64,000 nucleotides of DNA, from assembly GCA_964436545.1 (NCBI GenBank), contig CAYTCJ010000006.1, forward strand, positions 4,729 through 68,728, read 5' to 3'. The notes beneath the pieces were generated by a model that was not told where the DNA came from, ran no database searches, and saw only the letters and a list, made by a program, of their open reading frames with translations. Each line of letters begins with the position of its first letter. Within the stretch, counting starts at the first letter, position 1. This DNA comes from an uncultured Candidatus Saccharibacteria bacterium. Its GTDB lineage: Bacteria > Patescibacteriota > Doudnabacteria > UBA920. Position numbers and translations under genes: made by a program. This document shows positions 47,113 to 63,590 of this stretch, piece by piece.

Positions 47113-47186
47113 TGGTGGACCTGGGGGGAATCGAACCCCCGACTAATCCATGCCATGGATCCGTATTACCATTATACTACAGGCCC
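47113..47186 (-). tRNA. tRNA-Ala (anticodon GGC) with G3:U70
   Basis: Anticodon loop ATGGCAT, T arm GGGGGTTCGATTCCCCC, acceptor GGGCCTG/CAGGTCC, encoded CCA. Confidence 0.85.
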
Positions 47187-48732: not shown

Positions 48733-50214
48733 ATGATTATATCTAAAAGAATTAATCTAATTAATCTCTGCCGAATATTTTTTTTATTATTTCTATTCTC
48801 AATCTTTTTTCCTATTCGTTATGTCTTCCCTACCTCGGAAAGCTATATTACTGGGCTTTATTCAGACTTTACTACTTTTTCCTTATATTTAAGCGATATA
48901 TTCTTATTTATTGCTTTTTTCTTTATTTTGTGGTATAATTATAAATATTTTATTGAATTCATTGTTAATTGTAAATTGCTAGTTGCTTTATGGATTTGGC
49001 TTATATTAGCCATTTTTATTTTTAATCCGCATATCTCAGGTTTAAATTTTTGGTCATTTTTTAAGTTTTTTGAACTCATTGTTGTTGCATATGGAACAAT
49101 TAAGGCAATTTTCAATTATCAATTTTCAATTTCGAAATCTTGGTTTTTAGGCATGTTCATATTATTAGGCACGGTTCAATCAATAATTGGGCTAATGCAA
49201 TTTCTTAAACAAGCGCCAATTGGCCTAAGTAAATTAGGAGAGCAACAAATTTACCCTTATTTAAGCGGAGTAGCCAAAATAGTTTCAGGTGGAACAATCT
49301 ATATTCGTGCCTATGGCACCTTTCCTCATCCTAATATTTTGAGTGTTTTTTTGTTAGTTGCAATATTTTTGCTTATTCATCTTTCGTTAAATCAGCAAAA
49401 ACCTAATTTAACAAGCAACTTATTCTCTAAGCACTACTCTCTCATCACTAAAATTATCCTTAATTTAGCGCTTTTTATAAATATCCTTGGTTTGACTGTC
49501 ACTTTTTCACGTGGAGCATTCTTAGCTTTAGGGTTAGGATTATTGGTATTTTTTGGACTACTGGCTTATTGGCTCAAAAAGCCTGTCATTCTGAACTCGT
49601 TTCAGAACCTAGATTCCAGATCGGTCCGCCCACTGGCAGACAGCATGACAAAAAACCTAAAAGTAGTTGCCATTAATATACTTTTAGCTTTAGCTGTGGC
49701 ATTTTTAATTTTCAAACCTTTTCTCCTTTCACGTGCCACAATTTCCGATCAAGCTACAATAGAAAGAAAAATTTACAACCAAACAGCCAGAAACATGATT
49801 AAAGCTAATCCGGTTATTGGCAAGGGAGCAGGGGAGAGTCTGCTTCATATGGAACAATATAGCCCAGTTAAACTAAAACCGTGGCAAATTCAGCCGATTC
49901 ATAACTATTTTTTGCTATCTGCCTCAGAGATTGGAATATTTGGGTCTCTAATTTTAATTTTGGTATTTCTCTCTCATCTGTTTGGAATTTGGAATTTAAA
50001 AATTTGGGATTTATTTAAAAATTGGAAATTAGAAATTAGAAATTTAAAAACCAGCTTTTACCGCCTAACTCTTTTTACCATCTTAATATGTTTTATAATA
50101 TTAATGCTCTTTGACCATTACTTTTATACCATTCAATCTACCCAAATGCTCTTATGGATGACTTTGGGAATAATTGCATCCACAAAAGAAAATGAAATTA
50201 ATCAAAATCCTTGA
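48733..50214 (+). CDS. O-antigen ligase/polymerase-like (Wzy_C) polytopic membrane protein
   Basis: About 12 TM helices, periplasmic loop with SRGAF.ALGLG motif. Confidence 0.6.
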   Translation: MIISKRINLINLCRIFFLLFLFSIFFPIRYVFPTSESYITGLYSDFTTFSLYLSDIFLFIAFFFILWYNYKYFIEFIVNCKLLVALWIWLILAIFIFNPHISGLNFWSFFKFFELIVVAYGTIKAIFNYQFSISKSWFLGMFILLGTVQSIIGLMQFLKQAPIGLSKLGEQQIYPYLSGVAKIVSGGTIYIRAYGTFPHPNILSVFLLVAIFLLIHLSLNQQKPNLTSNLFSKHYSLITKIILNLALFINILGLTVTFSRGAFLALGLGLLVFFGLLAYWLKKPVILNSFQNLDSRSVRPLADSMTKNLKVVAINILLALAVAFLIFKPFLLSRATISDQATIERKIYNQTARNMIKANPVIGKGAGESLLHMEQYSPVKLKPWQIQPIHNYFLLSASEIGIFGSLILILVFLSHLFGIWNLKIWDLFKNWKLEIRNLKTSFYRLTLFTILICFIILMLFDHYFYTIQSTQMLLWMTLGIIASTKENEINQNP

Positions 50215-51170: not shown

Positions 51171-51180
51171 CATAAACCAA

Positions 51181-51229
51181 TTATACAAAAAATAAGGGGG
51201 TCGTCGCAAGCTATCTTGCAACGACCCCG
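51181..51229 (-). terminator. strong rho-independent terminator (GC stem plus T-run) for the 64-aa high-GC ORF
   Basis: Minus strand GGGTCGTTGCAAGATAGCTTGCGACGACCCCC followed by TTATTTTTTG. Confidence 0.75.
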
Positions 51230-51248
51230 ACGAATCCTCACCAGTTTA

Positions 51249-51443
51249 TCATCGCCTAAGATCAGATTTGAACAAAACTTCTTCATTCATGTCGTCGCCG
51301 ACATGAATGCTTTTTACGACACGCGCAGAGCGCGCATCTACGAGCTCCTTTGCACGTTTAGCATTTTCTGCCACGACGATGGCAGTACCGTGTGTGGTAA
51401 CCCACATGGCACCGCCCGTAATTTCCATAACAAACAGTTTCAT
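51249..51443 (-). CDS. small (64 aa) protein encoded with conspicuously high-GC codon usage; function unknown
   Basis: Local GC far above the window background; own terminator; AT-rich promoter region upstream. Confidence 0.5.
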   Translation of the reverse strand: MKLFVMEITGGAMWVTTHGTAIVVAENAKRAKELVDARSARVVKSIHVGDDMNEEVLFKSDLRR

Positions 51444-51581
51444 AAAACCTCCTTACTTTTAAAATTTACTTGTTTACCAAAATATGGTAAACTTATTTTG
51501 AATAATTATTTAATATATATTATTTTTCTTTTATTTAAGCCCAAATTTATGAAATTTTTCGTCAAAAATAATTGACAATTT

Positions 51582-52331
51582 ATGAAAAATAACATTTTAT
51601 CGTGGTTGAAATCTTCGGGACTGGACGAACAAAGGGCAAGTATTTTTTTAGCTCTTTTGAGTTTAGGAGAATCTACTGCCAAACAGATTTCTGAAAAAGT
51701 TAAGCTGGGTAGAACAGCGGTTTACGACAATTTAAGAATTTTAGAAGAAAAAGGTTATGTAAAATCTATAAGGCTTGGTAAAAGGCAAAAATTTGTTCCC
51801 ACACACCCCAACGAACTTTACAAACAATACGAAAGCAAAAAACAACAGTTAAAAGAACTGCTTCCGGATTTTTTGGCATTATACGCAGAAAAAAATTCTA
51901 AACCTTTTGCGCAATTATTTGAGGGCCCATACGCAGCAAGAGAAATTTACGAAGATATATTAAGAGTTGAAGAGAAAGAATATGTTTACTTTTCACCATC
52001 TGAATTAACTCTACAAGTGGTCAATCGTAAATTTATAGAAGACTGGATAAAACGTAGGGTAGCAACAGGCATACGCTCTCGTTCTTTACGAGTAAAATCT
52101 AAAACAGTGCCCAATGCCCCGATTTTTAACGAAGAAACTACATATCTTAGACAAATTCGATATTTAAACGGCTTTGTGGATTTAAAAGCAGCTATTTATA
52201 TTTACGGAAATAATATTGGGGTAATTTCCACCATAAGAGAAAACAGTGCGTTTATTATACACTCGCATGACTTAGCATTTAGTCTAAAACAAATTTTTGA
52301 ATTTATGTGGCAATTATCTTTAAAATCATAG
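51582..52331 (+). CDS. TrmB-family transcriptional regulator
   Basis: N-terminal TrmB HTH (ASIFLALLSLGESTAKQISEKVKLGRTAVYDNLRILEEKGYV). Confidence 0.75.
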   Translation: MKNNILSWLKSSGLDEQRASIFLALLSLGESTAKQISEKVKLGRTAVYDNLRILEEKGYVKSIRLGKRQKFVPTHPNELYKQYESKKQQLKELLPDFLALYAEKNSKPFAQLFEGPYAAREIYEDILRVEEKEYVYFSPSELTLQVVNRKFIEDWIKRRVATGIRSRSLRVKSKTVPNAPIFNEETTYLRQIRYLNGFVDLKAAIYIYGNNIGVISTIRENSAFIIHSHDLAFSLKQIFEFMWQLSLKS

Positions 52332-52382
52332 AGACTTTACACATAAAACTTATTTATATAAAATTATTCAGTGTAAACCTTT

Positions 52383-52433
52383 GGGCCTGTAGTAAAGTGG
52401 TCCACCAAAGGCGGATAAATATTACACGGCATT
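52383..52433 (+). pseudogene. scrambled tRNA-Ala remnants: internally deleted Ala(GGC) minihelix GGGCCTGTAGTAAAGTGGTCCACCA plus a 14-nt exact piece of Ala(CGC)
   Basis: Manual comparison with intact tRNAs at 47113-47186 and 52521-52594. Confidence 0.6.
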
Positions 52434-52520
52434 TTCACCCCGTTACTCAAAATTCAACTAGGGCTCATGGTCCAGTGGTAAGAAGTGGCATTTTTATCTC
52501 GTATTAAATTTTAATTTTCT

Positions 52521-52594
52521 GGGGGTATAGTAAAGTGGTATTACACGGCATTCGCATTGCCGGGGCTCGGGTTCGATTCCCGATACCTCCACCA
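52521..52594 (+). tRNA. tRNA-Ala (anticodon CGC) with G3:U70
   Basis: Anticodon stem-loop CGGCA-TTCGCAT-TGCCG, T arm TCGGGTTCGATTCCCGA, encoded CCA. Confidence 0.8.
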
Positions 52595-52691
52595 TAAAAA
52601 TTTTAATACTGGAATGCATTGCCGACTTGTCCGACGAAGCTTTAGCGAAGTCAGAGGCGGGGGTTCGACTGCAGTCCTCCGTAGCTTTCTT

Positions 52692-52773
52692 GTCCACCAT
52701 AGCTTTCTCGTCCGATGAAGTCACTTAGGTGACGAAGTTGGAAGCGAAGGATGGATTCCCCCCAGGTCCACCA
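52692..52773 (+). other. additional tRNA-Ala(GGC) 3'-end fragments (GTCCACCA at 52692-52699; GATTCCCCCCAGGTCCACCA at 52754-52773)
   Basis: GTCCACCA occurs three times within 400 bp; last copy matches 20 nt of the Ala(GGC) 3' end. Confidence 0.6.
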
Positions 52774-52783
52774 AATTTACTTA

Positions 52784-53494
52784 ATGAAAAATATTACTCA
52801 CCAAAAACAAAAAAAACTTTGGAACCTAGAACACCAAAAGCCTTTTATGCTTTTACCTATGGACTCACAGACACCCTCAAAAGGTGTCGTTTTTTTTTAT
52901 AACTGGTTAAAGAAAAACTATAAACAGAAAAGCCTCAAAGGCTTAGAAATGGGCTCGGGTAAAGGTAGGAACTCTATTTGGCTAACTCAGCAAGGGGTTA
53001 ATATGACTGGATTTGATTTTTCCAAAATTGCAATTAATCACGCAAAAAATAGAATGAAAACTTTAAACTTAAAACACCATATAAAATTTTTGGTTGGGGA
53101 TGCGACTAAAACTTGGCCGTTCAAAAATAATCAATTTGACTTTGGAATTGACTGCTTTGCTTCAACTGACATAGAAACATCTAAAGGCAGAGATTTTGCC
53201 AACAAAGAGTTTTGGCGGGTATTAAAACCACAGGGCGTATTATTTCTGTATTTACTTTCTACTGAAGACCAGTTTCATCGGCAAATGATCCAAACATCAC
53301 CCGCTAACGAACCCAATGCTTTTTTGCATCCCAAGACCGGTAAATATGAAAAGGTGTTTAACCAAAATGAAATAAAAAAACTCTATAAAGACTGGAAATT
53401 TATTCAAATCAAACGGATTACCAAAACCGCCACCTTTTTTGGCAAAAAGTATAACTGTAAACATTTTTGGATAATTCTTGAAAAAACAAAATAA
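52784..53494 (+). CDS. class I SAM-dependent methyltransferase (ORF-track start 52751 lies inside a tRNA fragment, so the 52784 ATG is preferred)
   Basis: Motif I LEMGSGKGRNSIWL, motif post-I GFDFS. Confidence 0.7.
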   Translation: MKNITHQKQKKLWNLEHQKPFMLLPMDSQTPSKGVVFFYNWLKKNYKQKSLKGLEMGSGKGRNSIWLTQQGVNMTGFDFSKIAINHAKNRMKTLNLKHHIKFLVGDATKTWPFKNNQFDFGIDCFASTDIETSKGRDFANKEFWRVLKPQGVLFLYLLSTEDQFHRQMIQTSPANEPNAFLHPKTGKYEKVFNQNEIKKLYKDWKFIQIKRITKTATFFGKKYNCKHFWIILEKTK

Positions 53495-53530
53495 AATAAC
53501 TTTTAAAGCCCTGTAACATTTCAGGGCTTT

Positions 53531-54082
53531 TTGCATTATACTTATGCTAGCAATAATTCATATATGAAAACCGACGAAAAATTACTTGTAAAACAAGCGC
53601 AAAGCGGGGACAGGGAAGCCTTAGGAAAACTTTGGGATCTTATTACCCCAAAACTTTTTGGCTACCTTATAAACACTCTGCGCAATAAACAATTAGCCGA
53701 AGATATTTTACAAACCACTTGGCTAAAAGCCATAAAAGCACTGCACACTTTTCAAAACAGGGAAGCGGGAATTAGTCCGTGGCTGTTTGCCATTGCCAAA
53801 AACGAATGCAAACAACATTGGCGAAAAAAAACTCCCAATACTGAACTTAACGATGAAACTATTAGCATAAATTCATCCAATATAGAAATAAATAAAAATA
53901 ACTTATTAGTTGAACAAATCTTAAATAAGTTAGAGGAAACAGACCGCGAACTTATCCGCCTTCGCTACATTGCCGATCTCTCACCCAACGACATTGCCAA
54001 AATTTTAAATATTAATTTTGTAGCTGTGCGCGTGAGGCTCCACCGAGCCATTAAACGCGCACAAATCATTGCCAATCAATAA
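53531..54082 (+). CDS. ECF-type sigma-70 family RNA polymerase sigma factor
   Basis: Region 2 and region 4 motifs (LSPNDIAKILNINFVAVRVRLHRA). Confidence 0.85.
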   Translation: MHYTYASNNSYMKTDEKLLVKQAQSGDREALGKLWDLITPKLFGYLINTLRNKQLAEDILQTTWLKAIKALHTFQNREAGISPWLFAIAKNECKQHWRKKTPNTELNDETISINSSNIEINKNNLLVEQILNKLEETDRELIRLRYIADLSPNDIAKILNINFVAVRVRLHRAIKRAQIIANQ

Positions 54083-55313
54083 CTTTATGAAAAATATTAA
54101 TACCTTGTTAACCACTTGGGGTAAAAGCCAAGAGCAAACACCACCTAATAATTTGGCTTTAAAAAACCAACTCTTAGCACACTGGGACACGCTACCCAAA
54201 CCGTATAACCAAAAAACTTTTACTTTCCCTTGGCTGTCTATGGCTTTTGCCAGTTTAGCCATTATTCTGGTTATTGCCCAAGCTTCTCCCATTAACCAGA
54301 CATCTAATTTTACTCAATCTGATAATCAATTTGGAAAGAGTCCAATGCCGAATGAGTTGATGCAAGAAGAAATAAAAACCAAAGCCATAAATGAACAAGA
54401 CAGTAGTCTTTCCAATTCCGCTCCAGCTCTTAACAATAATTTTGCTAAAGAAAAATTGGATACTTCAGAAACACTTGCAAGAAGATCCCATTCCACTTTT
54501 GCCCCAGATTTTTATTTACCAAATCCAGCCTCACCGCCAATTACCGATAACCGCCAATTCTTAAGAACCGCTTATAGCGCACTGGTAAAAACCAGACACA
54601 CCTCTAAACTTACCACGCAAATTCAAATGACCATAAAAGGCTTAGATGGCCGAGTAGATACGATTAATAACTTACCCACCAGCGGGTATATAAGCTTTGT
54701 CATTCCCAGCAGTCGGTTAGAAAATTTTAAACAAGCATTAATTAATTTGGTAGACAAAAAATTTGTTCTTGAAACTATTACAGCAGAAAATCTGCTTCCC
54801 GAAAAACAAAGTATAGAAAAACAACAAACCCAAACCAGTAATGCCATTAACTCGCTTAATTTAGATAGGGAAAATTTAACTAAAGCACACAACCAGAAAA
54901 CTGCCAACTTACAAGCTCAAATTAATAATCTTACCCAAGAGCTTAAAGCTTTAGACAGTCAATACCCTGCGTGGTCAGCAGAGTATCAGGAGCAACAAAA
55001 AACCTTGCTCAAGGCTCGCGCTTCACTTCAACAACAACTGAATGCGGAAAATTTTAATTATCAAAATAGTTTAAATAATTTAAACGAGCAAATAAAATAT
55101 AACGAAAACCAATTAACCAACTTAAGCGAACAAGACCAAACTTTACTAGACACCGTAGCTACCGTAAGAGGGGAGATTGCCATTCAAAGCATAAACTGGC
55201 TTCAAGCTCTACACACCTATTTTTCAGTTTATTGGCTAGCTTTGATCTTGCTTTGTCTTGCCGGACTTACTTTCTTCTTCCGCCAAAACAAAACCAATAT
55301 GGTTTTACCGTAA
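54069..55313 (+). CDS. putative anti-sigma factor: cytoplasmic N-term, single TM, large Q/N-rich coiled-coil extracytoplasmic domain, C-terminal TM
   Basis: Overlaps sigma gene by 14 bp; TM at ~60-80; heptad-like Q/N/L-rich region. Confidence 0.5.
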   Translation: MPINNFMKNINTLLTTWGKSQEQTPPNNLALKNQLLAHWDTLPKPYNQKTFTFPWLSMAFASLAIILVIAQASPINQTSNFTQSDNQFGKSPMPNELMQEEIKTKAINEQDSSLSNSAPALNNNFAKEKLDTSETLARRSHSTFAPDFYLPNPASPPITDNRQFLRTAYSALVKTRHTSKLTTQIQMTIKGLDGRVDTINNLPTSGYISFVIPSSRLENFKQALINLVDKKFVLETITAENLLPEKQSIEKQQTQTSNAINSLNLDRENLTKAHNQKTANLQAQINNLTQELKALDSQYPAWSAEYQEQQKTLLKARASLQQQLNAENFNYQNSLNNLNEQIKYNENQLTNLSEQDQTLLDTVATVRGEIAIQSINWLQALHTYFSVYWLALILLCLAGLTFFFRQNKTNMVLP

Positions 55314-55558
55314 TTTAAATCTTGCTGTTAAATCATTCTCATATTCTCAAGAATATGAGAATGATTTATTTTATTAAAACCAACCCAAACTCTCTATGGT
55401 CTTATTCGCGCGAATAATACCATAGAGGCTTCAACAATAATTTTTTACAACCCCGTCCTTTACTAAAGGCAGGATTATTTTTTTATTTGACTAAAAACAT
55501 AAAGGCTGGTAAGTTAGCAAAAGTCGGTAAATTTCAAAACGAAAAGGAGGCCAAAAAA

Positions 55559-56671
55559 ATGGCCATGAAAATTGACGGTTTGGAAATCGAATACACAAAT
55601 CACCGCATGGTTACCCCTTTACAAATCGGCGACAAGCCCCCGATGAAAGACATCACCCGTCTGGTGGTTAACGCCACCGTGGACGGAGTGCGAGGAGTCG
55701 GAGAAGCCACTCTTGCCGATGTCTGGGCAGGGGCAGACTTGGAGGAGATGAAGGCTTACGCCTCAGCTCTGCAAGCCCGAATGCGAGGAATGGATACGGA
55801 AAACCCCCTTGAATTATATAAGAAAATGGTGCCGACCATGCTAGCTGACTCGGACATCAACAAAGTTGCACAATTGATCGTCTGGGCGGGGTTCTACAAC
55901 GCACTGTGGGATGCGTACGGCAAAATGCACGAGAAGCATCCCTGCCTCATGCTGGGCGAAGTTGATAAGAGATACGCTGGCATTTTTCTCCCTATGCCTC
56001 GCAAGAAGGTGTACTTGGAGTACACCTATGGGGGCGCAAGCAAATTACTTGGTGAGAGGGGACTGCTTGCGGCAAAGCACCAACGAGGCTACCGGGTAGT
56101 CAAAGTGAAGTGCGGAGGGGACCCCGAAGAGGACTTCAAGAAAATGATGGCGATCTACGCAGCCACCGGCTGCCAACTGTGGCCGGACTTCAACGGATCG
56201 GGAACACCTGAGGGAGTCAAACAACTCTGCAACGCCCTCAAGGCGTGCCTCCGTCAGGGAGAATTGCTCGCCGTGGAGCAACCCTTCTCGGTGGCGGAGA
56301 CCTTCAAAATCGACATCCACGGCATGGGCCACGTTCCCTTTTTCTTAGACGAGTCCGCGGTCATGCCTGAGGACATCCTTGCCGCCAAAGCGCTGGGCTA
56401 CCTGGGAATAGTGGTGAAGGCAGACAAGGGCGGTCTGTCCCACGTGGCAGAGATGGTGCGGGTTGCCAAAGAGCACAGAATGTTGGTGTCGGTCCAGGAC
56501 CTGACCAGTGACCCCTGGCCGTCGCTCGGAATCGCCGCCTACCTCCGCGATCTCCACGGACACATAGCCGAGATGAACCAAATCGAGCTTCTGGTGACCC
56601 CGAAGCCCGTCGTTATCCAGAACGGGTGCGTTGACACAAGCCAGCTGACAGGTCCAGGGTTCTACCCGTAG
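55559..56671 (+). CDS. enolase-superfamily (MR/MLE-like) enzyme encoded with foreign high-GC codon usage; start at the ATG 8 nt after AAGGAGG
   Basis: KVKCG (KxK), metal ligands D..E(QP)..D(ES), capping domain; GC clearly above window background. Confidence 0.7.
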   Translation: MAMKIDGLEIEYTNHRMVTPLQIGDKPPMKDITRLVVNATVDGVRGVGEATLADVWAGADLEEMKAYASALQARMRGMDTENPLELYKKMVPTMLADSDINKVAQLIVWAGFYNALWDAYGKMHEKHPCLMLGEVDKRYAGIFLPMPRKKVYLEYTYGGASKLLGERGLLAAKHQRGYRVVKVKCGGDPEEDFKKMMAIYAATGCQLWPDFNGSGTPEGVKQLCNALKACLRQGELLAVEQPFSVAETFKIDIHGMGHVPFFLDESAVMPEDILAAKALGYLGIVVKADKGGLSHVAEMVRVAKEHRMLVSVQDLTSDPWPSLGIAAYLRDLHGHIAEMNQIELLVTPKPVVIQNGCVDTSQLTGPGFYP

Positions 56672-56774
56672 AATAGAAAACACCTTTGCCCTAAAATAAA
56701 AAAACAACAATCAAGGGGCAGGGTGTAAAATGGCCAGTGGCGGGCTGAAAGGAGGCAGTTTGCCACACAAACAA

Positions 56775-56817
56775 AACGGCGCTTGGAGTGCGAACTCTCG
56801 AGCGCCGTTATTTTTTT
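56775..56817 (+). terminator. rho-independent terminator closing the high-GC segment
   Basis: AACGGCGCT...AGCGCCGTT stem followed by T8. Confidence 0.7.
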
Positions 56818-56858
56818 AATCTCTTTCTCTATCTATCTCTTTCTCTAACTCTCTCCCC

Positions 56859-57428
56859 CTACAACCACCTCTGCAAATATTTACCCGCCACTCGCTCTAC
56901 GAGTAAAAAGAAAACTATCATAACAAAAGGCAAAACATCTACAAACCGAGAATAGTGCACAAATTTAAATAAATACTCACTAAACGAATAACTCAAAAGG
57001 CCAATAACGCTTAACCAAAACACGACGGAAATTATTGAGGCGCGAACAAATTTTTGCATAGGTAAATTTAACATTCCGGTGCGAATTAATATGGCTCTAT
57101 GCACGCCGTAGATAAATTTGGAAACTACAAAAATATGGGTAGTTTTATTTTGAATATGTGGGTCAAACCGACTGGCAATTTTATTTACCCAAGCATTAAT
57201 TTTGGGAAAGCGGGTCAAGCGCTTGCCCGTGTAATACAATAACCACTGTTCAAGCATGGCACCAAACAGCACGCAGAGCAGAGAGGGCACAGCCGGCACC
57301 GAACCCACGGAAATTAAAAAAATCACCGTTAAAGCAAACAACAAACCTTCCACTAACATTCCGAGCACAAAAAAAGTGTAAACTAAGACGTCTAAATTGT
57401 GAGCTAATAAATAATTAAAAATTTCCAT
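56859..57428 (-). CDS. DedA/VTT-family membrane protein
   Basis: TM pattern and conserved G..R motifs. Confidence 0.6.
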   Translation of the reverse strand: MEIFNYLLAHNLDVLVYTFFVLGMLVEGLLFALTVIFLISVGSVPAVPSLLCVLFGAMLEQWLLYYTGKRLTRFPKINAWVNKIASRFDPHIQNKTTHIFVVSKFIYGVHRAILIRTGMLNLPMQKFVRASIISVVFWLSVIGLLSYSFSEYLFKFVHYSRFVDVLPFVMIVFFLLVERVAGKYLQRWL

Positions 57429-57441
57429 TGATCAAAATAAT

Positions 57442-58965
57442 TTAATTAACATCTACCACTAATTCAATTTCCGCGCCTAACTGTTTTAACCGGCTGGCTA
57501 AATCTTCGTAACCTCGGTTAATGGAATAAACATTTCTTAAAATCGATTCACCCTGAGCCGAAAGCATACCAATGAGAATTATAGCCGCTGGCCTTAAAGC
57601 CGGAGGACACACCATATCTGCTCCTTTTAGTTCAGTTTTACCGTCTACATACACTCGGTGAGGATCGGCTAAAATAATTTTCGCTCTCAACTTATTTAAT
57701 TCCGTATAGTAGATAGCTCGGTTTTCATACACCCAATCGTGAATCAAAGTTTGGCCTTGGCTTTGCGTGGCTATGGGCACAAAAAATGGCAAGTTATCTA
57801 TATTAATACCCAAATTAGAGGGTAGAGGATGAAGTTTCTCTTCTAAAGCCACAAGCTTAGAGGGCAAAGTTTGTATATCCACTAAATTCATCCAACCATT
57901 GGTGGATTTATAGGTCTTTAACACTTTATATTTAAAGCCCATTTTTTCCAGTTTGAGTAATTCTAAACGTAAAAAATCTATGGGACATCCTTCTATAACC
58001 ATACCGGAATGAGTGGTAATGGCAATCGATAAAAACATCATGGCTTCAATGGGATCTTCGCCAATATTATATTCCACTCGCTTATTTATTTCCCTGACTC
58101 CTCTAATTTTTAGCGTTTGACTGCCCAATCCTTCTATTTTTACACCCAATTTTATTAAGAACTGGCATAAATCTTGGACCATATAATTAGCCGAGGCTAA
58201 TTGAATGGTAGTTTCGCCCACAATTTTGGAGGCCGTAATTAATGCGTTCTCCGTAACCGTATCGCCGGTTTCATAAAGCACTATGTCTGCAGGGTGTAAC
58301 TCCTTAGCCGTAATTTTATACTCATCATGAATGGTTTGAATCTTTACACCTAATTTTTCCAAAGCAAACATATGGGGCCTAACTGTTCTCGCTCCCAATT
58401 TACAACCACCGCTTAACGGCCAAGAAAAAGTTTTAAATAAATGCGCCAAAGGCCCAATCATCATTAAGGCAGCTCTGGTTTTAGTGACGGCTAATCGGTC
58501 AACTTTTTTTGGATCTAAAGTTTCGCATTTAATTTCCAAATCATTCGGCCCGAGCCAATTAACCTCTGCTCCCAAACTGGTTAACACCTCTATCATTCTA
58601 AACACTTCTTCAATTTTGGGCACACCCCGCAAAATGGTTTTGCCCGCATTTAACAAACTCGCGGACATAATGGCAATCGCGGAATTTTTTGAAGCATTGA
58701 CCTTAATATTACCGTGTAATTTTTTACCCCCCTGGATTTTAAAATTCAGTGCTTGCCCGCCTAAGGTGATGATTTCACGGTTTAAAACTTTACTCAGCTT
58801 TAACAGTAAGGCCGTAGAAAAATTTTGTTCGCCCTTTTCCATTCTAGCCACGGCCGATTGGCTGGTTTTTAGTCGTTTGGCAAATTCTTGTTGTGTCCAA
58901 GCCTTTTGTTCCCGCAAACTACTAATTAATTGGGCTAACTTCAAGTTTTTAGTCTTTATTTCCAT
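57442..58965 (-). CDS. murA: UDP-N-acetylglucosamine 1-carboxyvinyltransferase MurA with N-terminal XRE-type HTH domain fusion
   Basis: HTH LAQLISSLREQKAWTQQEFAKRLKTSQSAVARMEKGE; MurA body NIKVNASKNSAIAIMSASLL with active-site Cys in SGGCKLGARTV. Confidence 0.85.
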   Translation of the reverse strand: MEIKTKNLKLAQLISSLREQKAWTQQEFAKRLKTSQSAVARMEKGEQNFSTALLLKLSKVLNREIITLGGQALNFKIQGGKKLHGNIKVNASKNSAIAIMSASLLNAGKTILRGVPKIEEVFRMIEVLTSLGAEVNWLGPNDLEIKCETLDPKKVDRLAVTKTRAALMMIGPLAHLFKTFSWPLSGGCKLGARTVRPHMFALEKLGVKIQTIHDEYKITAKELHPADIVLYETGDTVTENALITASKIVGETTIQLASANYMVQDLCQFLIKLGVKIEGLGSQTLKIRGVREINKRVEYNIGEDPIEAMMFLSIAITTHSGMVIEGCPIDFLRLELLKLEKMGFKYKVLKTYKSTNGWMNLVDIQTLPSKLVALEEKLHPLPSNLGINIDNLPFFVPIATQSQGQTLIHDWVYENRAIYYTELNKLRAKIILADPHRVYVDGKTELKGADMVCPPALRPAAIILIGMLSAQGESILRNVYSINRGYEDLASRLKQLGAEIELVVDVN

Positions 58966-59269
58966 AAATTTATATCAAATATGATATAAAAAGTGTATCA
59001 TATTTGCTAAGGCAAGTCAAAACTTACTTAAAATATGGAAGTAAACCACTGTTCTAAAAACTGGGTTTGGCGATTATAAAAAAATAATCCGAGCAATAAA
59101 CCCAAAATTACCGTATTCACAAACAACAAGTGCCATAAGTCGCTTTTGGTATGTGTTTTGTTAGCTTCGTTGATTTCCATAATTCAAATTAGTGCTTAAT
59201 AATTTTGTTCAGTATACCATAATTTTTTGGTTTGTGCATAACCATAAACAGTGCTAAAATATTTCAGCT

Positions 59270-59758
59270 ATGCACACTTTTAACCTCACAACTTGGTTAA
59301 TTTTAACCGGTCTCATTAGCGGTTTATGCCTGCTGGGTTTAGGTTATATGTTTTGGAAATTTCAAAGCACCCAGAGAAAACTTAACTCCTTTTTACTGGG
59401 CAAAAGCGGAGCAGACTTAGAAAGTCTCATTCTGGCCATTCAAGAAAATCTCAAAAGTATTGAAGCCGAAAATCTTACCGCTTCCAATGAAATCAAAGAG
59501 CTCCAACAACTAAGCCGATTGGCAATTCAGAAAATCGGTCTGGTAAGATACAGTCCCTTTGCCGACGGGGGAGGCAACTATAGTTTTTCCTTAGCTTTGT
59601 TAAACCATACGCAATCGGGCATTCTAATTACCAACATGTATGGTCGGCAACAAAGTCGAGTCTATGTAAAAGAAATCTTGCAGGGCAAAAGCGATATCGT
59701 TTTAACCCAAGAAGAACAAACTGCCATTCATAACGCACAATATTATATCAATCATTAA
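59270..59758 (+). CDS. DUF4446-family membrane protein
   Basis: N-terminal TM; GLVRYSPFADGGGNYSFSLALLN motif typical of DUF4446. Confidence 0.65.
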   Translation: MHTFNLTTWLILTGLISGLCLLGLGYMFWKFQSTQRKLNSFLLGKSGADLESLILAIQENLKSIEAENLTASNEIKELQQLSRLAIQKIGLVRYSPFADGGGNYSFSLALLNHTQSGILITNMYGRQQSRVYVKEILQGKSDIVLTQEEQTAIHNAQYYINH

Positions 59759-59770
59759 GTATAAAAATTT

Positions 59771-60178
59771 ATGGAAAAAGATCTCTCCAACTTTGAAGGT
59801 CCGGCAGAAACCATTGTCGGACCCAGCGTAAAAATTCAAGGCGATTTAAACAGCGAAGGCAACATTAACATAGAAGGCCAAGTTGCCGGTAAAGTGGCCA
59901 CCAGCCAAAGCGTGTTTGTTAAAGCCGGAGCTAAAATTACCGCAGATATTTTGGCGGTTAATGCCATTATTGGGGGCGAAGTCTTGGGCAATATTAAAAT
60001 TTCCGGCCACTTAATTATGCAATCTTCCGCCAAAATTAACGGCGATATTTCTTGCAGTATTTTAAGAGTGGAAGATGGCGCCCAATTTACCGGCAAGTGC
60101 AATATGAAAGGCGCTACAAACGGCAATGGTAAAAAAACTTCTGCCCATAACGGCGTTGAACTGGAAACCGAAGAATAA
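59771..60178 (+). CDS. bactofilin (polymer-forming cytoskeletal protein)
   Basis: Beta-helical repeat pattern I.G.V.G.V...V......A.I.GEV.G.I. Confidence 0.8.
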   Translation: MEKDLSNFEGPAETIVGPSVKIQGDLNSEGNINIEGQVAGKVATSQSVFVKAGAKITADILAVNAIIGGEVLGNIKISGHLIMQSSAKINGDISCSILRVEDGAQFTGKCNMKGATNGNGKKTSAHNGVELETEE

Positions 60179-60280
60179 AATAATTGAGCAAAATTGACAT
60201 AAATGACAAAAGTGAACAAAAACTGATGCACTTAAATTTTTGGCATTTTTATTTATTTATTAATTTTTGTCATTACTATT

Positions 60281-61123
60281 GTGTATTATTATATTTTTGA
60301 CCAAGGGAATTTACCCGCAGACAAATACGAAGCTCTCCAAACCCAAACCACTGGTCTATTAGCTGAATTTAAAATTGCCGGCGAAACCGGTCGTGTCACG
60401 CCCTTAAGGTCCATAGCCGACCTAATTGACACTGCCAGCCAAAGAGGCGCCAAAACTTTAATCGCCTGTGGCTCCGACGACACTTTTAACCAAATGCTGG
60501 TGGCCTTAAAGGGTAGAGATTTTGTATTGGGTTTTATTCCGTTTGATCCGCAATCATTTTTAGCCAAAATTTTAGGCTTGGATTCCGTCTTTACCGGAGT
60601 AAAAACCATTGCCGGCCGAAGAATTGAAAAAATTGATTTGGCTAAAATCGCCGACAACTACTTTTTAAGTTTTTTAGAGTTTGGCGTCATGAGTAAAGAC
60701 ATTAAAACCGCGGGGTTTTTTTCCGGCTTAAAACTGCTTTCCGGAGAAGTTAAAAATATTCAAATTAAAATCGATAACGCCTATGTGCTCAAACTGGAAG
60801 CCTTGGGAGGTATGTTAATTAATGCTCGGGCCACCACCTCCAAGAACCGAGCAATTGCCAACCCCACAGACAGCCATTTAGATTTGCTGATTTTAGAAAA
60901 ACTTTCTAAAACTGAAATCCTCAGATATCGCAATCTCATTGCTCAGGGCTTTTTAGAACAAGTGCCCAAAACCACGGTTATTAAGTGTAGAAAAGTGGAA
61001 TTTTTAGAACCCCGAGGTATGAACTTAACCATCTTAGGCCGGATTGTAGCTAAATTACCCAGCACAGTAGAAATTATTCCCCAGCGCCTAAGACTTATTG
61101 TCGGAAAAAACCGAACCTTTTAA
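60281..61123 (+). CDS. diacylglycerol-kinase-catalytic-domain (YegS/DAGK_cat-like) lipid kinase homolog with degenerate GGDG motif (GSDD)
   Basis: LIACGSDDTFNQML. Confidence 0.55.
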   Translation: MYYYIFDQGNLPADKYEALQTQTTGLLAEFKIAGETGRVTPLRSIADLIDTASQRGAKTLIACGSDDTFNQMLVALKGRDFVLGFIPFDPQSFLAKILGLDSVFTGVKTIAGRRIEKIDLAKIADNYFLSFLEFGVMSKDIKTAGFFSGLKLLSGEVKNIQIKIDNAYVLKLEALGGMLINARATTSKNRAIANPTDSHLDLLILEKLSKTEILRYRNLIAQGFLEQVPKTTVIKCRKVEFLEPRGMNLTILGRIVAKLPSTVEIIPQRLRLIVGKNRTF

Positions 61124-61164
61124 GTTTAGTATAAAACTATTACTAATTATTAAAAATAAAATTT

Positions 61165-61377
61165 ATGTCAGAAAATCCATCGGGGTTAGATTCGACTACC
61201 GAAGAGTTAGACCCAATTACTAAACACAATGCTTACCTTGAGCTTTTAGAAAAACGACTTGAAGACGCCCAAGCTTTACCACCCACACCAACAAATCAAA
61301 AACTAATTGAAGATCTCAGAAAAAAAATTGCCGATGCAGAATACAACCGGCCAACACTGCCCCCCAGTAGCTGTTAA
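61165..61377 (+). CDS. hypothetical small protein
   Basis: ORF only. Confidence 0.3.
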   Translation: MSENPSGLDSTTEELDPITKHNAYLELLEKRLEDAQALPPTPTNQKLIEDLRKKIADAEYNRPTLPPSSC

Positions 61378-61607
61378 TTAAATTTACCCATAAAATTAAG
61401 GCGTAAATAACGCCACTGGTTTAAATCTTCTAACTTTACCCGGCTTTTAGGTTTGGTCTATAACCATAAACAATGAATTGATTTTTCTCTGCAAATCAAG
61501 TATAATCAATCAATCCCGTTAGAAGTTTATTCTAAAAAATTAGATACTACGGGGTAAATAAAAAAGGACGAGAATTTTAATAACATTGATAAATAACCTC
61601 TAACAGG

Positions 61608-63539
61608 ATGGATATTTCCAGCTTATCATCGCAATTAAATATTTCCACTCAAGATCTCCGCGCCAAAGCTAAAGAGAAGGGTTTTTTTATATCCCCGAGA
61701 GCCAATAAAATTGACAACCAGTTGGCTAAACAAATTTTAGAAGCTTTACAAACCGCGGTGGTAGCAAAAGTTCAAGCTCCGGCGGACACAGTGACCAAAA
61801 AACAAATTAAACTACCCGCTTATATTAAAGTTAGAGATTTTGCCACCTTAATTAATTTACCGGTTACGGACATCATCAAAAACTTAATCCATAACGGGAT
61901 TATGGCAACGCTTAACGAAGAGATTGATTTTGAAACGGCGTCCATCGTGGCATCGGATTTGGGTTTTGAAGCCGAAACTCAAGTGGATAACACCGAAGCG
62001 GAATTTGGGATGGCGTTTTTACAAAAAGTGATTACCAACGAAAAACCGGAAACTTTAAAAACCCGGCCTCCGATTGTCGCCATTATGGGACACGTGGACC
62101 ATGGCAAAACCACTTTGCTTGATACTCTCAGAAAAACCAAAATCGCCGAAGGCGAAAGCGGAGGCATTACTCAGCACATTGGCGCTTACCGAGTTAAACA
62201 TAACGGCAAATGGATTACTTTTTTAGATACTCCGGGTCATGAAGCCTTTAGCGAAATGCGCGCCAGAGGTGCTAACGTAACCGACATTATTGTTTTAGTC
62301 GTCTCGGCCGATGACGGCGTTAAACCTCAGACCTTGGAAGTAATTAACCGAGCTAAATTTACCGACACGCCTTTAATAGTGGCCATAAATAAAATCGATA
62401 AACCCGAAGCGAACATTTTGCGCGTTAAACAAGAATTGGCCAGCGCCAATGTCTTAACCGAAGAATGGGGCGGTAAAACCATTGCTTGCGAAATCAGCGC
62501 CAAACAAAATATTGGCTTAGATAATTTATTGGAAATGATTTTGCTCACTGCGGAATTAGAAACCTTTAAAGCCAACCCCGAAGGTCAAACCGTGGGCACT
62601 GTGATTGAATCTAAAGTTATGCAAGGTAAAGGCCCTACCGCGACTATTCTTATTCAGAACGGCACCCTTAAATTAGGCGATATTGTTTCAGCCGGACCGG
62701 CGTTTGGCCGAATTCGTTCCTTGGAAGACGAACATGGTAAAAAATTAAAAGAAGTTTTACCCAGTATGCCGGCACAAGTTTCCGGCCTCTCCGAACTTCC
62801 GCATGCCGGAGACGTCATTCAGGTTTTTACTGACTTAGACAAAGCCAAACAAGTCGCCATTATTACTCAAAAGAAATTAAAAACTCATAAACTCTCGGCG
62901 CGCAAACTCAGTGGCGATTTAACCAGCAAAACTTTAAACCTGATTATTAAAGCCGATGTGGCCGGCTCACTGGAAGCCATTAAACAATCGATTGCCAAAT
63001 TAAAAAACGACGAGGTAAAAATTAACATTTTATCGGAAGGCATTGGCGAGGTGAACGAGTCCGATTGTTTGCTGGCCTCCAGCAGTAAAGCTACTGTGAT
63101 AGCTTTTCGAACCAAAGTAAACCCCAAAGCCGTTAGTCTGGCTAAACTCAAACAAGTTACCATAGATTCCTACGATGTCATCTACGAATTAATTGAAGCG
63201 GTAACCAAAGCAGTAATTGAAATGTTTACTCCGGAAACGGAAAAATTTATTTTAGGCAAAGCCAAAGTTTTAGCGGTCTTTATGACCGAAAAAAACCATA
63301 TGATTGTCGGAGGCCGAGTGGAAGAAGGGGAGCTAAAAAAAATCAGTCATATTAATATCATCCGAGAAGATAAAGAATTGGGTCGGGGGGATATCATGGA
63401 ATTACAACAAAATAAAGTTGCCAGCAAGGGCGTACTGGCTGGCAGTGAATTTGGCATTAAACTTAAAACTCCGGTGAAAATTAAAGTGGGCGATGTGCTG
63501 GAAAGTTTTGAAGAAAAAATTAAAACCAAAACCTTATAA
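61608..63539 (+). CDS. infB: translation initiation factor IF-2
   Basis: G domain GHVDHGKTTLLD, DTPGHEAF, NKID; C-terminal IF2 domains. Confidence 0.95.
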   Translation: MDISSLSSQLNISTQDLRAKAKEKGFFISPRANKIDNQLAKQILEALQTAVVAKVQAPADTVTKKQIKLPAYIKVRDFATLINLPVTDIIKNLIHNGIMATLNEEIDFETASIVASDLGFEAETQVDNTEAEFGMAFLQKVITNEKPETLKTRPPIVAIMGHVDHGKTTLLDTLRKTKIAEGESGGITQHIGAYRVKHNGKWITFLDTPGHEAFSEMRARGANVTDIIVLVVSADDGVKPQTLEVINRAKFTDTPLIVAINKIDKPEANILRVKQELASANVLTEEWGGKTIACEISAKQNIGLDNLLEMILLTAELETFKANPEGQTVGTVIESKVMQGKGPTATILIQNGTLKLGDIVSAGPAFGRIRSLEDEHGKKLKEVLPSMPAQVSGLSELPHAGDVIQVFTDLDKAKQVAIITQKKLKTHKLSARKLSGDLTSKTLNLIIKADVAGSLEAIKQSIAKLKNDEVKINILSEGIGEVNESDCLLASSSKATVIAFRTKVNPKAVSLAKLKQVTIDSYDVIYELIEAVTKAVIEMFTPETEKFILGKAKVLAVFMTEKNHMIVGGRVEEGELKKISHINIIREDKELGRGDIMELQQNKVASKGVLAGSEFGIKLKTPVKIKVGDVLESFEEKIKTKTL

Positions 63540-63560
63540 CGGAAATTTCTCCTTACGCGT

Positions 63561-63590
63561 AAAACCCTGTAAATCCTTACAGGGTTTTAC
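63561..63590 (+). terminator. rho-independent terminator after infB
   Basis: AAAACCCTGTAA-atcc-TTACAGGGTTTT. Confidence 0.7.

Follow-up and report, generated by a model that had tools for sequence, protein, structure and literature searches.

An old, probably foreign enolase-superfamily gene module with divergent alleles in an AT-rich Patescibacteria (CPR) genome

A lineage-specific segment of 5.6 kb lies between rlmH and a VTT/DedA gene in the window (the whole 64,000-nt stretch of DNA that was analysed). Its contents, assigned partly by Pfam, are a gene for a 64-aa protein, a TrmB-family regulator, tRNA-Ala(CGC) with tRNA debris, a SAM methyltransferase, an ECF sigma factor, a putative anti-sigma factor and an enolase-superfamily gene with its own expression signals, referred to here as the enolase module (Table 1). 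In the relatives L013, L019 and L022 (~62-66% MurA identity), the run MurA-VTT-tRNA-Ala-rlmH-Wzy fits within ~0.6-2 kb and holds none of the segment's genes. The tRNA fragments match the tRNA-Ala found at the same locus in relatives, which points to rearrangement or integration at this tRNA in the past. Neither an integrase nor any other mobility gene was detected within the segment. A first-pass annotation had placed both the 64-aa and the enolase gene in a tRNA-fragment region together with the ECF sigma/anti-sigma pair, and this shared setting around tRNA-Ala is borne out.

Table 1. Features of the segment around tRNA-Ala (positions in the window)
Feature	Position	Strand	Details
Lineage-specific segment, rlmH to VTT/DedA gene	51174..56858		5.6 kb; content assignments partly Pfam
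Intrinsic terminator of 64-aa gene	51187..51228	-	14-bp stem (51228-51197), 9 G-C pairs, then T-run
64-aa protein gene	51249..51443	-	GC 0.477
Shine-Dalgarno AAGGAGG of 64-aa gene	51448..51454	-	4 nt 5' of ATG; kept in L008-L011
tRNA-Ala(CGC) region	52383..52776	+	gene 52521-52594; 5' fragment 52383-52401; 3' fragment 52749-52776
Sigma-70-like promoter (predicted from sequence)	55487..55515	+	TTGACT (55487-55492), 17 nt, TAAGTT (55510-55515)
Shine-Dalgarno and hairpin	55544..55564	+	AAGGAGG (55544-55550), then small GGCC-loop-GGCC hairpin ending at start codon
Enolase-superfamily gene	55565..56671	+	368 aa; alternative ATG 55559 gives 370 aa
Interval with two recombination breakpoints	56351..56650		~56,350-56,375 (window vs L007); ~56,640-56,650 (window vs L006, L006 vs L007)
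Structured 3' UTR	56672..56820	+	hairpin 1 (56680-56726), hairpin 2 (56737-56766), terminator (56775-56809) and U-run

Among ~1,100 ORFs from its own and related Patescibacteria loci, the enolase gene is the top compositional outlier. In 1-kb bins, GC content reaches 0.527 at 56001-57000, with all other bins of the window at or below 0.44, and GC stays at 0.49-0.60 across 200-nt windows from 55600-55799 to 56500-56699. The coding sequence reaches a GC of 0.561, a GC1 of 0.612 and a GC3 of 0.691, compared with 0.386 ± 0.036 for GC (max 0.450) and 0.357 ± 0.052 for GC3 (max 0.436) in 59 native ORFs (z = 4.9 and 6.4, respectively). Amino-acid make-up and first-position GC are shifted as well, and 0.84 of the two-fold NNY codons end in C, versus 0.22 (max 0.45) in native genes. 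In 75 related Patescibacteria loci, only 9 of 1041 ORFs have a GC3 at least 0.20 above the locus median, and the largest excess belongs to an enolase orthologue (0.75 vs 0.34). The most C-biased native genes (SodA, DUF4446, T4SS pilin, ECF sigma, bactofilin, methyltransferase, IF-2 and the putative anti-sigma) reach NNC values of 0.33-0.45, but NNG values of just 0.09-0.26. Since NNG is high in the enolase alleles (0.54-0.68, with NNC at 0.76-0.84) and their four-fold sites are G-rich, the codon bias is not an exaggerated form of the native one. By the published Muto-Osawa regressions, GC3 is not below the value predicted from GC1. The antisense ORFs that had been ascribed to the high GC are present and are not conserved between alleles.

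The module carries its own expression signals. The hexamers and spacing of the putative promoter, which would drive the module, and most of the 5' UTR are kept in L001 and L096 despite different neighbouring genes. In the same relatives the stem of the GGCC hairpin is retained, with a variable loop. The enzyme had initially been described as a 370-aa protein behind an AAGGAGG motif; the motif stands, and ATG 55565 is the more likely start, because it is the only ATG conserved in orthologues and gives the 368 aa of the public gene call. It lies 14-15 nt from the Shine-Dalgarno (SD) motif, a spacing that the hairpin would effectively shorten. The claim of a canonical SD among native genes mostly without one turned out to be too cautious: AAGGAGG precedes both genes, even a 5-nt SD core is missing from the starts of all 59 native ORFs, and the two modules account for three of the window's six AAGGAGG sites. 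Terminators had been proposed for both genes and are found at both, that of the enolase gene as the last of three hairpins in a 3' UTR with a minimum free energy of -59.1 kcal/mol (z = -6.3). The loop of hairpin 2, AAAGGAGG, is invariant. Mean column identity is 89% in five aligned UTRs, and the UTR can be aligned to that of L096 despite saturated synonymous sites in the adjacent genes; among 38 pairs, eight one-sided changes are still wobble-compatible and one is compensatory, with two broken cells. No Rfam family matched this UTR, and no second copy was found in 1.3 Mb of related DNA.

The 368-aa protein matches Pfam MR_MLE_C with 45.7 bits (cutoff 29.4). Its AF2 model (pLDDT 88) superimposes on most of the 50 MR/MLE structures listed by Foldseek with TM 0.73-0.80. 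It shares the capping domain and (beta/alpha)7beta barrel of the MLE subgroup, which comprises L-Ala-D/L-Glu and other dipeptide epimerases, o-succinylbenzoate synthase/N-succinylamino-acid racemase and muconate cycloisomerase. As in that subgroup, strand 2 is followed by KxK and strand 6 by K-x-x-K-G-G, which supplies a second lysine, and the metal ligands are D/E/D. Six family members share K182-x-K184, D210, E240, D264 and K287 without exception; judged by these motifs, the catalytic residues of the subgroup are all retained and the predicted active site is intact. The best curated family match is L-Ala-D/L-Glu epimerase, but identity to the solved members is just 16-20% throughout, no subfamily is preferred, and all NCBIfam equivalog scores are far under the cutoff (e.g. 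36.8 vs 500). Its own family is very small, with four relatives reaching E <= 1e-30 in a search of 1.84 billion cluster representatives, and has specific motifs, namely G-x-G-x-x-T-L-A-N-V-W at the N-terminus, SVQDLT, and GPGF-Y-P at the C-terminus. Beyond the family, the nearest proteins are P0077 and P0078, with 23-26% identity and the motifs SVQDLT, NVW and GIAA in common with it; P0077 is encoded on a contig with 55% GC and adjoins microcompartment genes. Most likely, the enzyme uses K184 and K287 to remove the proton alpha to a carboxylate in a Mg2+-dependent step; a substrate resembling an amino acid, a dipeptide or an acyl-amino acid would thereby be racemised, epimerised or cycloisomerised. 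The neighbours are convergently transcribed and therefore provide no operon evidence for the substrate.

The first-pass annotation had described two conspicuously GC-rich genes, which holds for the enolase gene, whereas the 64-aa gene is a weak outlier only. Its GC (z = 2.5) and GC3 (0.462, z = 2.0) are matched by 6.3% and 11.5% of native 65-codon windows, respectively. The orthologue P0006 (83% identical, found at the corresponding site of four independent contigs) is more extreme, with a GC of 0.526 and a GC3 of 0.625 between AT-rich flanks. With a dN/dS of 0.10, the ORF is a genuine conserved gene under purifying selection; the protein has no match among Pfam, NCBIfam, PHROG and PADLOC families, and its AF2 model is unreliable (pLDDT 65). 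The terminator (folding z = -4.5) lies immediately upstream of rlmH and is kept in L008-L011. The gene's signals are styled like those of the enolase module, with a weaker compositional anomaly.

Both genes occur at the same sites and with the same GC excess in all relatives sampled across those sites (L001-L011, L096), the enolase orthologues having a GC3 of 0.69-0.75 between AT-rich flanks. L096 belongs to a species whose flanking genes have reached synonymous saturation relative to the window (pS 0.59-0.72; 0.586 for VTT and 0.719 for MurA, with 0.683 for the enolase gene). The enolase gene was already at its site in the common ancestor of a clade that is now at saturated synonymous divergence. 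A phylogenetic placement apart from the neighbouring genes, as expected for a newcomer, was essentially not seen, as the close homologues are all syntenic in the same clade.

Comparison of close strains revealed a different history for the enolase gene than for its flanks. The flanks are ~90-94% identical at the DNA level and the flanking proteins 93-99%, whereas the enolase alleles are just 62-77% identical in protein and ~65% in DNA. Between the window and L007, 149 of 465 positions differ 5' of 56,350, compared with 20 of 321 further 3' within the gene (Fisher p = 5e-20); between the window and L006, the counts are 345/984 in the enolase gene and 56/570 in the adjoining VTT gene (p = 1e-30). 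The dS values for L006 vs L007 are 0.18 (VTT) and 1.78 (enolase), and for the window vs L006 0.37 (VTT), 0.30 (MurA) and 2.0 (enolase), where values above ~1 are saturated and semi-quantitative only. Allele similarity does not track the relatedness of the flanks (72% protein identity for L006-L096, 62% for window-L006). The mapped breakpoints are the downstream ones; the contigs of L006 and L007 begin inside the enolase gene. Mosaic divergence is also found elsewhere in the genome (4-39% per 150 nt vs L012). Because the flanks are similar, the alleles divergent, the breakpoints sharp and dN/dS is ~0.15 (0.14-0.24 overall, 0.08-0.25 per domain), these data point to recombination that exchanges alleles while purifying selection acts on the gene. 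Between alleles, the synonymous sites are in effect random, yet every allele has kept its high GC3. This would not be expected from a single old acquisition followed by neutral drift (host GC3 0.36), and the lasting excess would need selection, biased conversion or an unsampled GC-rich reservoir besides.

Relatives' contigs often break in or near the gene (that of L012 ends at MurA), as would be expected of an assembly or binning chimera with a GC-rich fragment joined into an AT-rich contig. Such a join is ruled out by the replicated junctions: the downstream one recurs in at least seven independent ENA, NCBI and JGI contigs, the upstream one too in five, and the AT-rich UTRs grade into the GC-rich gene. 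A recent horizontal acquisition from a GC-rich host or partner organism, as originally proposed, would fit the alien codon usage, first-position GC and SD, the location in a tRNA-associated lineage-specific segment and the lack of any sign of amelioration, GC3 not lagging behind GC1. We nevertheless consider it very improbable, since relatives carry both genes at the same sites, including L096 with its saturated flanks, and the non-coding flanks of the module are kept across lineages. Neither did a donor emerge: an exhaustive HMMER search of the 1.84 billion cluster representatives (15 billion proteins) returned only the four relatives at or below the 1e-30 threshold, all on contigs with AT-rich flanks, and neither a pattern scan over GTDB genomes nor the phage, plasmid and IMG/VR collections yielded a candidate.

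Alternatively, the gene may be a long-resident one whose GC-rich codons, strong SD, near-consensus promoter and 3' hairpins with a stabilising effect owe their persistence to selection for expression that is very high or of a special kind, or to GC-biased gene conversion at a recombination hot spot, so that its composition would be uninformative on origin. The GC3 of ~0.7 at randomised synonymous sites, the high NNC, the conserved SD, promoter and UTR and the demonstrated recombination at the locus agree with this. It is unlikely in view of the NNG values, the shifted first-position GC and amino-acid make-up, and the missing correlation between local GC and divergence in native DNA (Spearman -0.10, p = 0.35); the known bacterial effects of such conversion are far below +0.33 in GC3. 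Repeated overwriting of the resident copy from an unsampled GC-rich reservoir (plasmid, phage, sister lineage or host) would account jointly for saturated allele divergence, uniformly high GC3 and breakpoints in or at the edge of the gene, and the distant homologues P0008 and P0009 lie between AT-rich flanks at a GC3 of only 0.42-0.46, as if ameliorated. We regard this as doubtful to a similar degree, because the collections searched, including metagenomes from the same samples, contained no such sequence, the gene moves together with its AT-rich promoter and 5' UTR, and a reservoir would be needed for two separate genes.

Lawrence and Ochman reportedly modelled compositionally atypical genes in tRNA-linked islands and their amelioration after transfer. 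The enolase module resembles these in its deviating GC and codon usage, in having expression signals of its own and in its place on the margin of a lineage-specific segment by a tRNA gene and tRNA fragments, but differs in the lack of a mobility gene, its age in the clade and the absence of amelioration at saturated divergence. In capsule, O-antigen and surface-antigen loci, deeply divergent alleles are exchanged by homologous recombination between conserved flanks. The identity contrast, the sharp breakpoints and the disagreement between allele tree and flanks are alike here, and a similar pattern is seen in the neighbouring Wzy-like gene (63.5% aa identity, dS 0.94); in contrast, the enolase gene product is a cytoplasmic-type enzyme under purifying selection and not an obvious surface determinant, and other parts of this genome often show patchy divergence too. 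Rare SD-led genes are known from mostly non-SD lineages, e.g. rpsU in Bacteroidia. The perfect AAGGAGG kept on two genes is comparable, but there is no evidence for autoregulation, and the window is without an rRNA gene from which the 16S anti-SD could be read.

The reading we favour, with a probability of roughly 55%, is that of an old enolase module of foreign origin whose alleles are shuffled by recombination, with the enzyme under purifying selection, in the genome of an ultra-small bacterium of the Patescibacteria (CPR). The region 55.49-56.82 kb would form a self-contained functional expression module of promoter, SD, enzyme, three-hairpin 3' UTR and terminator, with the composition and translation signals of a ~55-60% GC, SD-using genome. 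These signals and the position at the edge of the tRNA-Ala segment make an ultimately foreign origin most likely; as no donor emerged from the searches and each of the six known family members is flanked by AT-rich DNA, this is an argument from composition and signals. The module would have been at its site before the clade split, and divergent alleles would since move between related lineages by homologous recombination, with breakpoints that fall within the gene or at the 3' end of it. The enzyme is kept working by purifying selection, and a role for it in murein-peptide salvage would be plausible.

Comparison with related contigs suggests that the enolase module is old, restricted to one clade and functional, that its composition and translation signals are alien to the surrounding genome, and that relatives exchange it through recombination. 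The window as a whole has a GC content of 38.7 %; the highest of its 1-kb bins, 56001-57000, is at 0.527 and all others are at or below 0.44. The 200-nt windows from 55600-55799 to 56500-56699 lie at 0.49-0.60, and the one at 51200-51399, where a gene for 64 amino acids is located, at 0.495. Relative to 59 native ORFs of the window (GC 0.386 ± 0.036; GC3 0.357 ± 0.052, maximum 0.436), the enolase-superfamily gene is an outlier in GC (0.561, z = 4.9), GC1 (0.612, z = 2.8) and GC3 (0.691, z = 6.4), with C closing 0.84 of its two-fold NNY codons (native 0.22, maximum 0.45) and G closing 0.54 of its NNR codons (native 0.27, maximum 0.42). Among 1041 ORFs in 75 related Patescibacteria loci, nine exceed the GC3 median of their locus by at least 0.20, the most extreme being an orthologue of the enolase gene. 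The first-pass annotation had ascribed high GC and alien codon usage to both genes, which holds for the enolase gene and is only marginal for the 64-aa gene (GC 0.477, GC3 0.462, z = 2.0-2.5), a far weaker outlier that 6.3 % of native 65-codon windows match for GC and 11.5 % for GC3. The 64-aa orthologue elsewhere has a GC of 0.526 and a GC3 of 0.625.

The antisense ORFs attributed to the high GC do exist, yet they are not conserved between alleles, and the boundaries of the open stretches vary from allele to allele. The stretches represent the codon-aligned frame that GC-rich genes typically show, and the idea that an overlapping antisense gene drives the high GC was rejected. In another Patescibacteria locus (L068, 16593-19043), two adjacent ORFs with GC3 of 0.56-0.62 versus a locus median of 0.30 are possibly another GC-rich islet.

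Both genes had been taken for recent acquisitions, and the relatives do not support this: the two genes occupy the same sites in every relative that covers them (contigs L001-L011 and L096), and the absence of both is confined to relatives with ~62-66 % MurA identity. Three family members (P0002, P0003 and P0004) are 62-77 % identical to the window enolase protein and two others (P0008 and P0009) 34-38 %. The 62-77 % group sits at the identical site, between an anti-sigma-like gene (TrmB-like in L096) and the VTT-MurA genes, and its genes have a GC3 of 0.69-0.75 with AT-rich flanks in every case. L096 represents a clearly different species (MurA 75 % identical to the window at the amino acid level), and its pS to the window is 0.586 for VTT and 0.719 for MurA, both saturated, and 0.683 for the enolase gene. 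Since it lies at the same site and is as diverged as the saturated flanks, the enolase gene predates the split between the window lineage and L096. A chimeric assembly, against which a coverage-type check had been advised, is excluded because independent assemblies show the same arrangement at the same site, with recurring junctions. In the closest GTDB relative found (L012), the contig ends beside the enolase gene.

With the neighbouring HTH-MurA gene as query, every relative retrieved was a MAG of the Patescibacteria (Doudnabacteria, Parcubacteria and records carrying the label "Saccharibacteria"). MurA is fused here to an N-terminal Xre-type HTH_3 domain, and of the 80 Patescibacteria loci retrieved many conserve the fusion at full length (query residues 1-10 to ~503). 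At ~62-66 % MurA identity the gene order is MurA-VTT/DedA-(0.6-2 kb)-tRNA-Ala-rlmH-Wzy, and none of the window genes of 51.2-56.8 kb is found between VTT and rlmH in these relatives. In the window, tRNA-Ala(CGC) is flanked by two tRNA-Ala fragments, which match the ancestral tRNA-Ala at the same locus in relatives and also tRNA-Ala(GGC). The 5.6-kb lineage-specific segment around the intact tRNA has the two GC-rich genes at its opposite outer edges: the 64-aa gene shares one side with a TrmB-family regulator, and the enolase module shares the other with a methyltransferase, an ECF sigma factor and a putative anti-sigma gene that has no Pfam domain. The far (enolase) end of the segment yielded no repeat, and no integrase, recombinase or other mobility gene is among its genes, for which Pfam returned TrmB, methyltransferase and sigma-70 regions. 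No defence-system context emerged from PADLOC, whose matches were a generic methyltransferase hit and noise from coiled coils.

Coordinates of the features discussed (window positions)
Feature	Position	Strand	Remark
tRNA-Ala(GGC)	47113-47186		
Wzy_C/O-antigen-ligase-like gene	48733-50214		
64-aa gene	51249-51443	-	
5' tRNA-Ala fragment	52383-52401		flanks tRNA-Ala(CGC)
tRNA-Ala(CGC)	52521-52594		intact, retained
3' tRNA-Ala fragment	52749-52776		flanks tRNA-Ala(CGC)
Palindrome with TATTCGCGCGAATAA core	55392-55427		AT-rich, intergenic
Enolase gene	55565-56671	+	probable start ATG 55565 (368 aa); alternative ATG 55559
Enolase 3' UTR	56672-56820		150 nt
Patch inside VTT/DedA gene	57091-57270		
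HTH_3-MurA gene	57442-58965		

Three further observations concern this segment. Together, the 5' and 3' tRNA-Ala fragments would make an acceptor stem with a G3:U70 pair. From the intact tRNA to the 3' fragment there are 150 nt, which have a GC of 0.47 and give a weak permuted-tmRNA match (E = 0.005, below gathering). The palindrome with the TATTCGCGCGAATAA core, which may be an operator or terminator, also occurs between genes in L096 (~650-690) and in the more distant locus L013 (~12505-12530).

The alleles of the enolase gene are mosaic. Between the window and L006, dS is 0.37 for VTT and 0.30 for MurA, as opposed to 2.0 for the enolase gene; between L006 and L007 it is 0.18 for VTT (99 % amino acid identity) and 1.78 for the enolase gene (70 %), values above ~1 being saturated. 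Sliding windows and site counts show that divergence between the window and L006 drops from 35 % over the enolase gene to ~10 % within ~30 nt of the stop codon (345/984 versus 56/570 differences, p = 1e-30). Relative to L007 it falls from 32 % to 6 % at ~56,350, inside the gene (149/465 versus 20/321, p = 5e-20). The contigs of the relatives are short, and L006 and L007 begin inside the enolase gene, which places any upstream breakpoints outside them. Likeness of alleles is decoupled from kinship of the flanks (protein identity 72 % for L006-L096, 62 % for window-L006), and the other copies of P0002-type alleles are identical. Overall dN/dS is 0.14-0.24, and even the capping domain, the most diverged part (46-61 % amino acid identity), is under purifying selection. 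Native DNA compared with L012 (window 57409-63999) also diverges patchily, by 4-39 % per 150 nt, so exchange with divergent lineages by recombination is pervasive in this population, and no divergent patch is more extreme or longer than the enolase gene.

Two other stretches stand out at this locus. The patch inside the VTT/DedA gene is 64-82 % identical to L006 and L007, which are 96-99 % identical to each other there. GC rises locally to 0.45 at this patch, which resembles a second, small import by recombination. The Wzy_C/O-antigen-ligase-like gene differs strongly between close strains (63.5 % amino acid identity, dS 0.94, dN/dS 0.24; neighbours 90-94 %), and despite this divergence its composition is ordinarily AT-rich.

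The search for a donor covered 5.8 billion proteins with a word-indexed method and, by exhaustive phmmer, 1.84 billion representatives of ~15 billion proteins. Neither these searches nor a GTDB pattern scan, IMG/VR or tblastn against plasmids and phages yielded a donor, the GTDB and metagenome scans being pattern-limited. Exhaustive HMMER recovered just four relatives at E ≤ 1e-30, all with AT-rich flanks, the next proteins being at most 26-29 % identical; across the 5.8-billion and 1.84-billion searches the family comprises only four or five proteins beyond the window. Plasmid matches were rejected as generic mandelate-racemase genes (29 % identity over 38 % of the protein). For the proposed uptake from a host or partner, exhaustive HMMER gave no donor clade and no nesting in a foreign clade. 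A foreign-style reading is reasonable, but a recent import from a host is unsupported. The nearest proteins outside the family, P0077 and P0078 (472-484 aa, 23-26 % identity), share its idiosyncratic motifs, and the contig of P0077 has 55 % GC, with microcompartment shell, aldehyde dehydrogenase and transglutaminase genes beside it. An ancient origin in some GC-richer bacterium would fit the P0077 context, which does not, however, identify a donor. P0008 and P0009 have AT-rich flanks and a GC3 of only 0.42-0.46. Downstream of the P0008 gene (L093, 1240-1600), translations read as a stretch of 30 codons similar to the alanyl-tRNA synthetase N-terminus, a stop codon and the start of a DUF3800-like ORF.

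The canonical Shine-Dalgarno sequence noted for the enolase gene was borne out and had even been understated. A 5-nt SD core is present in 0/59 native ORFs at the longest-ORF start and in 2/59 at any candidate start, and AAGGAGG occurs six times in the window versus 9.4 expected. Three of the six sites belong to the enolase and 64-aa modules, and the other three are on the strand opposite to the surrounding ORFs. Shine-Dalgarno sequences seem to be hardly used in this genome. Between the window and the L001/L096 lineage, the TTGACT-17-TAAGTT putative promoter, the 5' UTR and the AAGGAGG of the enolase gene are all conserved, as is a GGCC-loop-GGCC hairpin reaching the start codon, and these signals are retained even where the upstream neighbour gene differs. 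The distant homologues P0008 and P0009 carry GGAGG 5-7 nt ahead of the ATG.

The strong terminators described for both genes are likewise real. The enolase 3' UTR contains three hairpins (folding z = -6.3), and in five aligned 3' UTRs the mean column identity of 89 % exceeds that of the coding region. Substitutions in the stems preserve pairing with two exceptions, and the loop of hairpin 2 is the invariant AAAGGAGG. The 3' UTR could be a stabiliser or give rise to a small RNA. An embedded known RNA is unsupported, as Rfam (E ≤ 1) gave no match in either gene or the UTRs. In 1.3 Mb of related DNA, a covariance model of the 3' UTR matched this module only, and the idea of an element widespread in CPR was rejected.

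The one puzzling property of the enolase module is its non-ameliorating GC. Synonymous sites are effectively randomised between alleles (pS 0.59-0.70 in full-length comparisons), and GC3 is 0.69-0.75 in every allele, whereas adjacent native genes, equally randomised between species, are at ~0.36. Judged by this difference, the substitution process of the gene has a different stationary composition, unless the divergence accrued elsewhere. After a single old transfer, the Lawrence-Ochman amelioration model reportedly predicts neutral decay toward host composition with GC3 lagging GC1. We take the Muto-Osawa regressions to place a GC3 of 0.69 in a genome of ~60 % GC and a GC1 of 0.61 in one of ~56 %. 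Measured against these models, the enolase alleles show neither decay toward a GC3 of 0.36 nor a lag of GC3 behind GC1. We consider it possible, if rather unlikely (a probability of roughly 0.3), that the high GC3 of ~0.7, the perfect SD and the structured 3' UTR are a gene-specific stationary state and not the fading footprint of a transfer. A clade-restricted enzyme gene, perhaps together with the 64-aa gene, would then have held its signals through complete synonymous randomisation.

The unameliorated GC3 leaves three candidate explanations, which such a stationary state would likewise imply: strong selection on composition or expression, unusually strong GC-biased conversion, or continuous re-seeding by a hidden GC-rich partner. 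Selection keeping GC3 high has to contend with the G-ending codons, which native C-biased genes shun and in which the enolase alleles are enriched; this opposition led us to reject translational selection as the sole cause. If conversion at a recombination hot spot were responsible, its effect would have to be very large, and in native DNA local GC and divergence are uncorrelated. Repeated re-seeding of the gene from an unsampled GC-rich reservoir is the third candidate, and none of the collections searched contained anything of the kind.

The 64-aa ORF is, on comparative evidence, a real gene, because it is conserved (orthologue 83 % identical), has a dN/dS of 0.10 and retains its SD and terminator in relatives. 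In four contigs the orthologue has TrmB and rlmH as its neighbours on either side, and at the nucleotide level the gene diverges by 21 %, versus 10 % for rlmH and 2 % for TrmB, a milder mosaic than that of the enolase gene. The protein has no family in Pfam, NCBIfam, PHROGs or PADLOC, and the AF2 model is a single helix of low confidence, with no reliable fold. Profile matches in the PDB were discarded as merely the repeated strand motif of designed Pizza propellers.

For the enolase-superfamily protein, the start in the table agrees with the orthologues and the public gene call. The AF2 model (pLDDT 88.1, pTM 0.88) combines an N-terminal alpha+beta capping domain with a C-terminal (beta/alpha)7beta barrel, the architecture of the superfamily, and all 50 PDB matches listed by Foldseek are MR/MLE structures (TM mostly 0.73-0.80, lowest 0.67; best E 8e-20), at only 16-20 % identity and with no subfamily favoured. 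In the Pfam superfamily test (PF13378/PF02746), MR_MLE_C scored 45.7 bits (cutoff 29.4) and MR_MLE_N stayed below its cutoff (16.9 versus 22). The superfamily is recognised by three divalent-metal carboxylates ending barrel strands 3, 4 and 5; the protein has D210 (W-x-D-F-N-G), E240 (V-E-Q-P) and D264 (L-D-E-S), which align to the D-x-N-G, E-Q-P and D-E-S motifs of 2qde. The MLE subgroup adds K-x-K ending strand 2 and a catalytic Lys ending strand 6, for two-base 1,1-proton transfer. V-K182-V-K184-C and V-K287-A-D-K290-G-G align to F-V-K-L-K and I-K-T-Q-K-a-G-G of 2qde, and the model places them on strands 180-184 and 283-287, as expected. None of the six known family members departs from the catalytic set K182-x-K184, D210, E240, D264 and K287.

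Because this two-lysine, Mg-binding active site is intact, the protein is predicted to abstract the alpha-proton of a carboxylate substrate, which is racemase, epimerase or cycloisomerase chemistry. No curated NCBIfam equivalog came near its cutoff: L-Ala-D/L-Glu epimerase (NF041118) reached 36.8 of 500 bits, over residues 174-308 only, and o-succinylbenzoate synthase 21.0 of 130.55 (TIGR01927) and 19.8 of 200.65 (TIGR01928). The closest, weak family likeness is to dipeptide epimerases. In the L-Ala-D/L-Glu epimerase YkfB of B. subtilis, a D-x-D after strand 8 and a capping-domain Arg bind the dipeptide ammonium and the Glu side chain. A D-x-D is not obvious in the strand-8 region of our protein, which reads A-E338-M-N340-Q in sequence. 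The window encodes the peptidoglycan enzymes MurA and Ddl, with DedA/UptA-like and Wzy-like genes nearby. The weak dipeptide-epimerase likeness, a peptidoglycan-making organism and the envelope genes make a role in murein-peptide salvage a reasonable guess; the neighbours, however, are transcribed convergently. The protein is a new, very rare and uncharacterised branch of a known superfamily, in a familiar genomic setting and with its active site intact. We found no paper joining CPR and the enolase superfamily.

Taking composition outliers for recent HGT is routine, but this shortcut fails here because the outlier is old, syntenic and unameliorated. GC-deviant genes are probably under-counted in CPR MAGs, since such stretches fragment assemblies into short contigs that drop from bins, as the contig ends of L006, L007 and L012 illustrate. 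The enolase enzyme is found in a salvage-dependent organism, adjoining cell-envelope genes. If its high GC is actively maintained, the module would offer a compact natural test of what drives synonymous composition in streamlined, AT-biased genomes, separating selection, biased conversion and repeated import.
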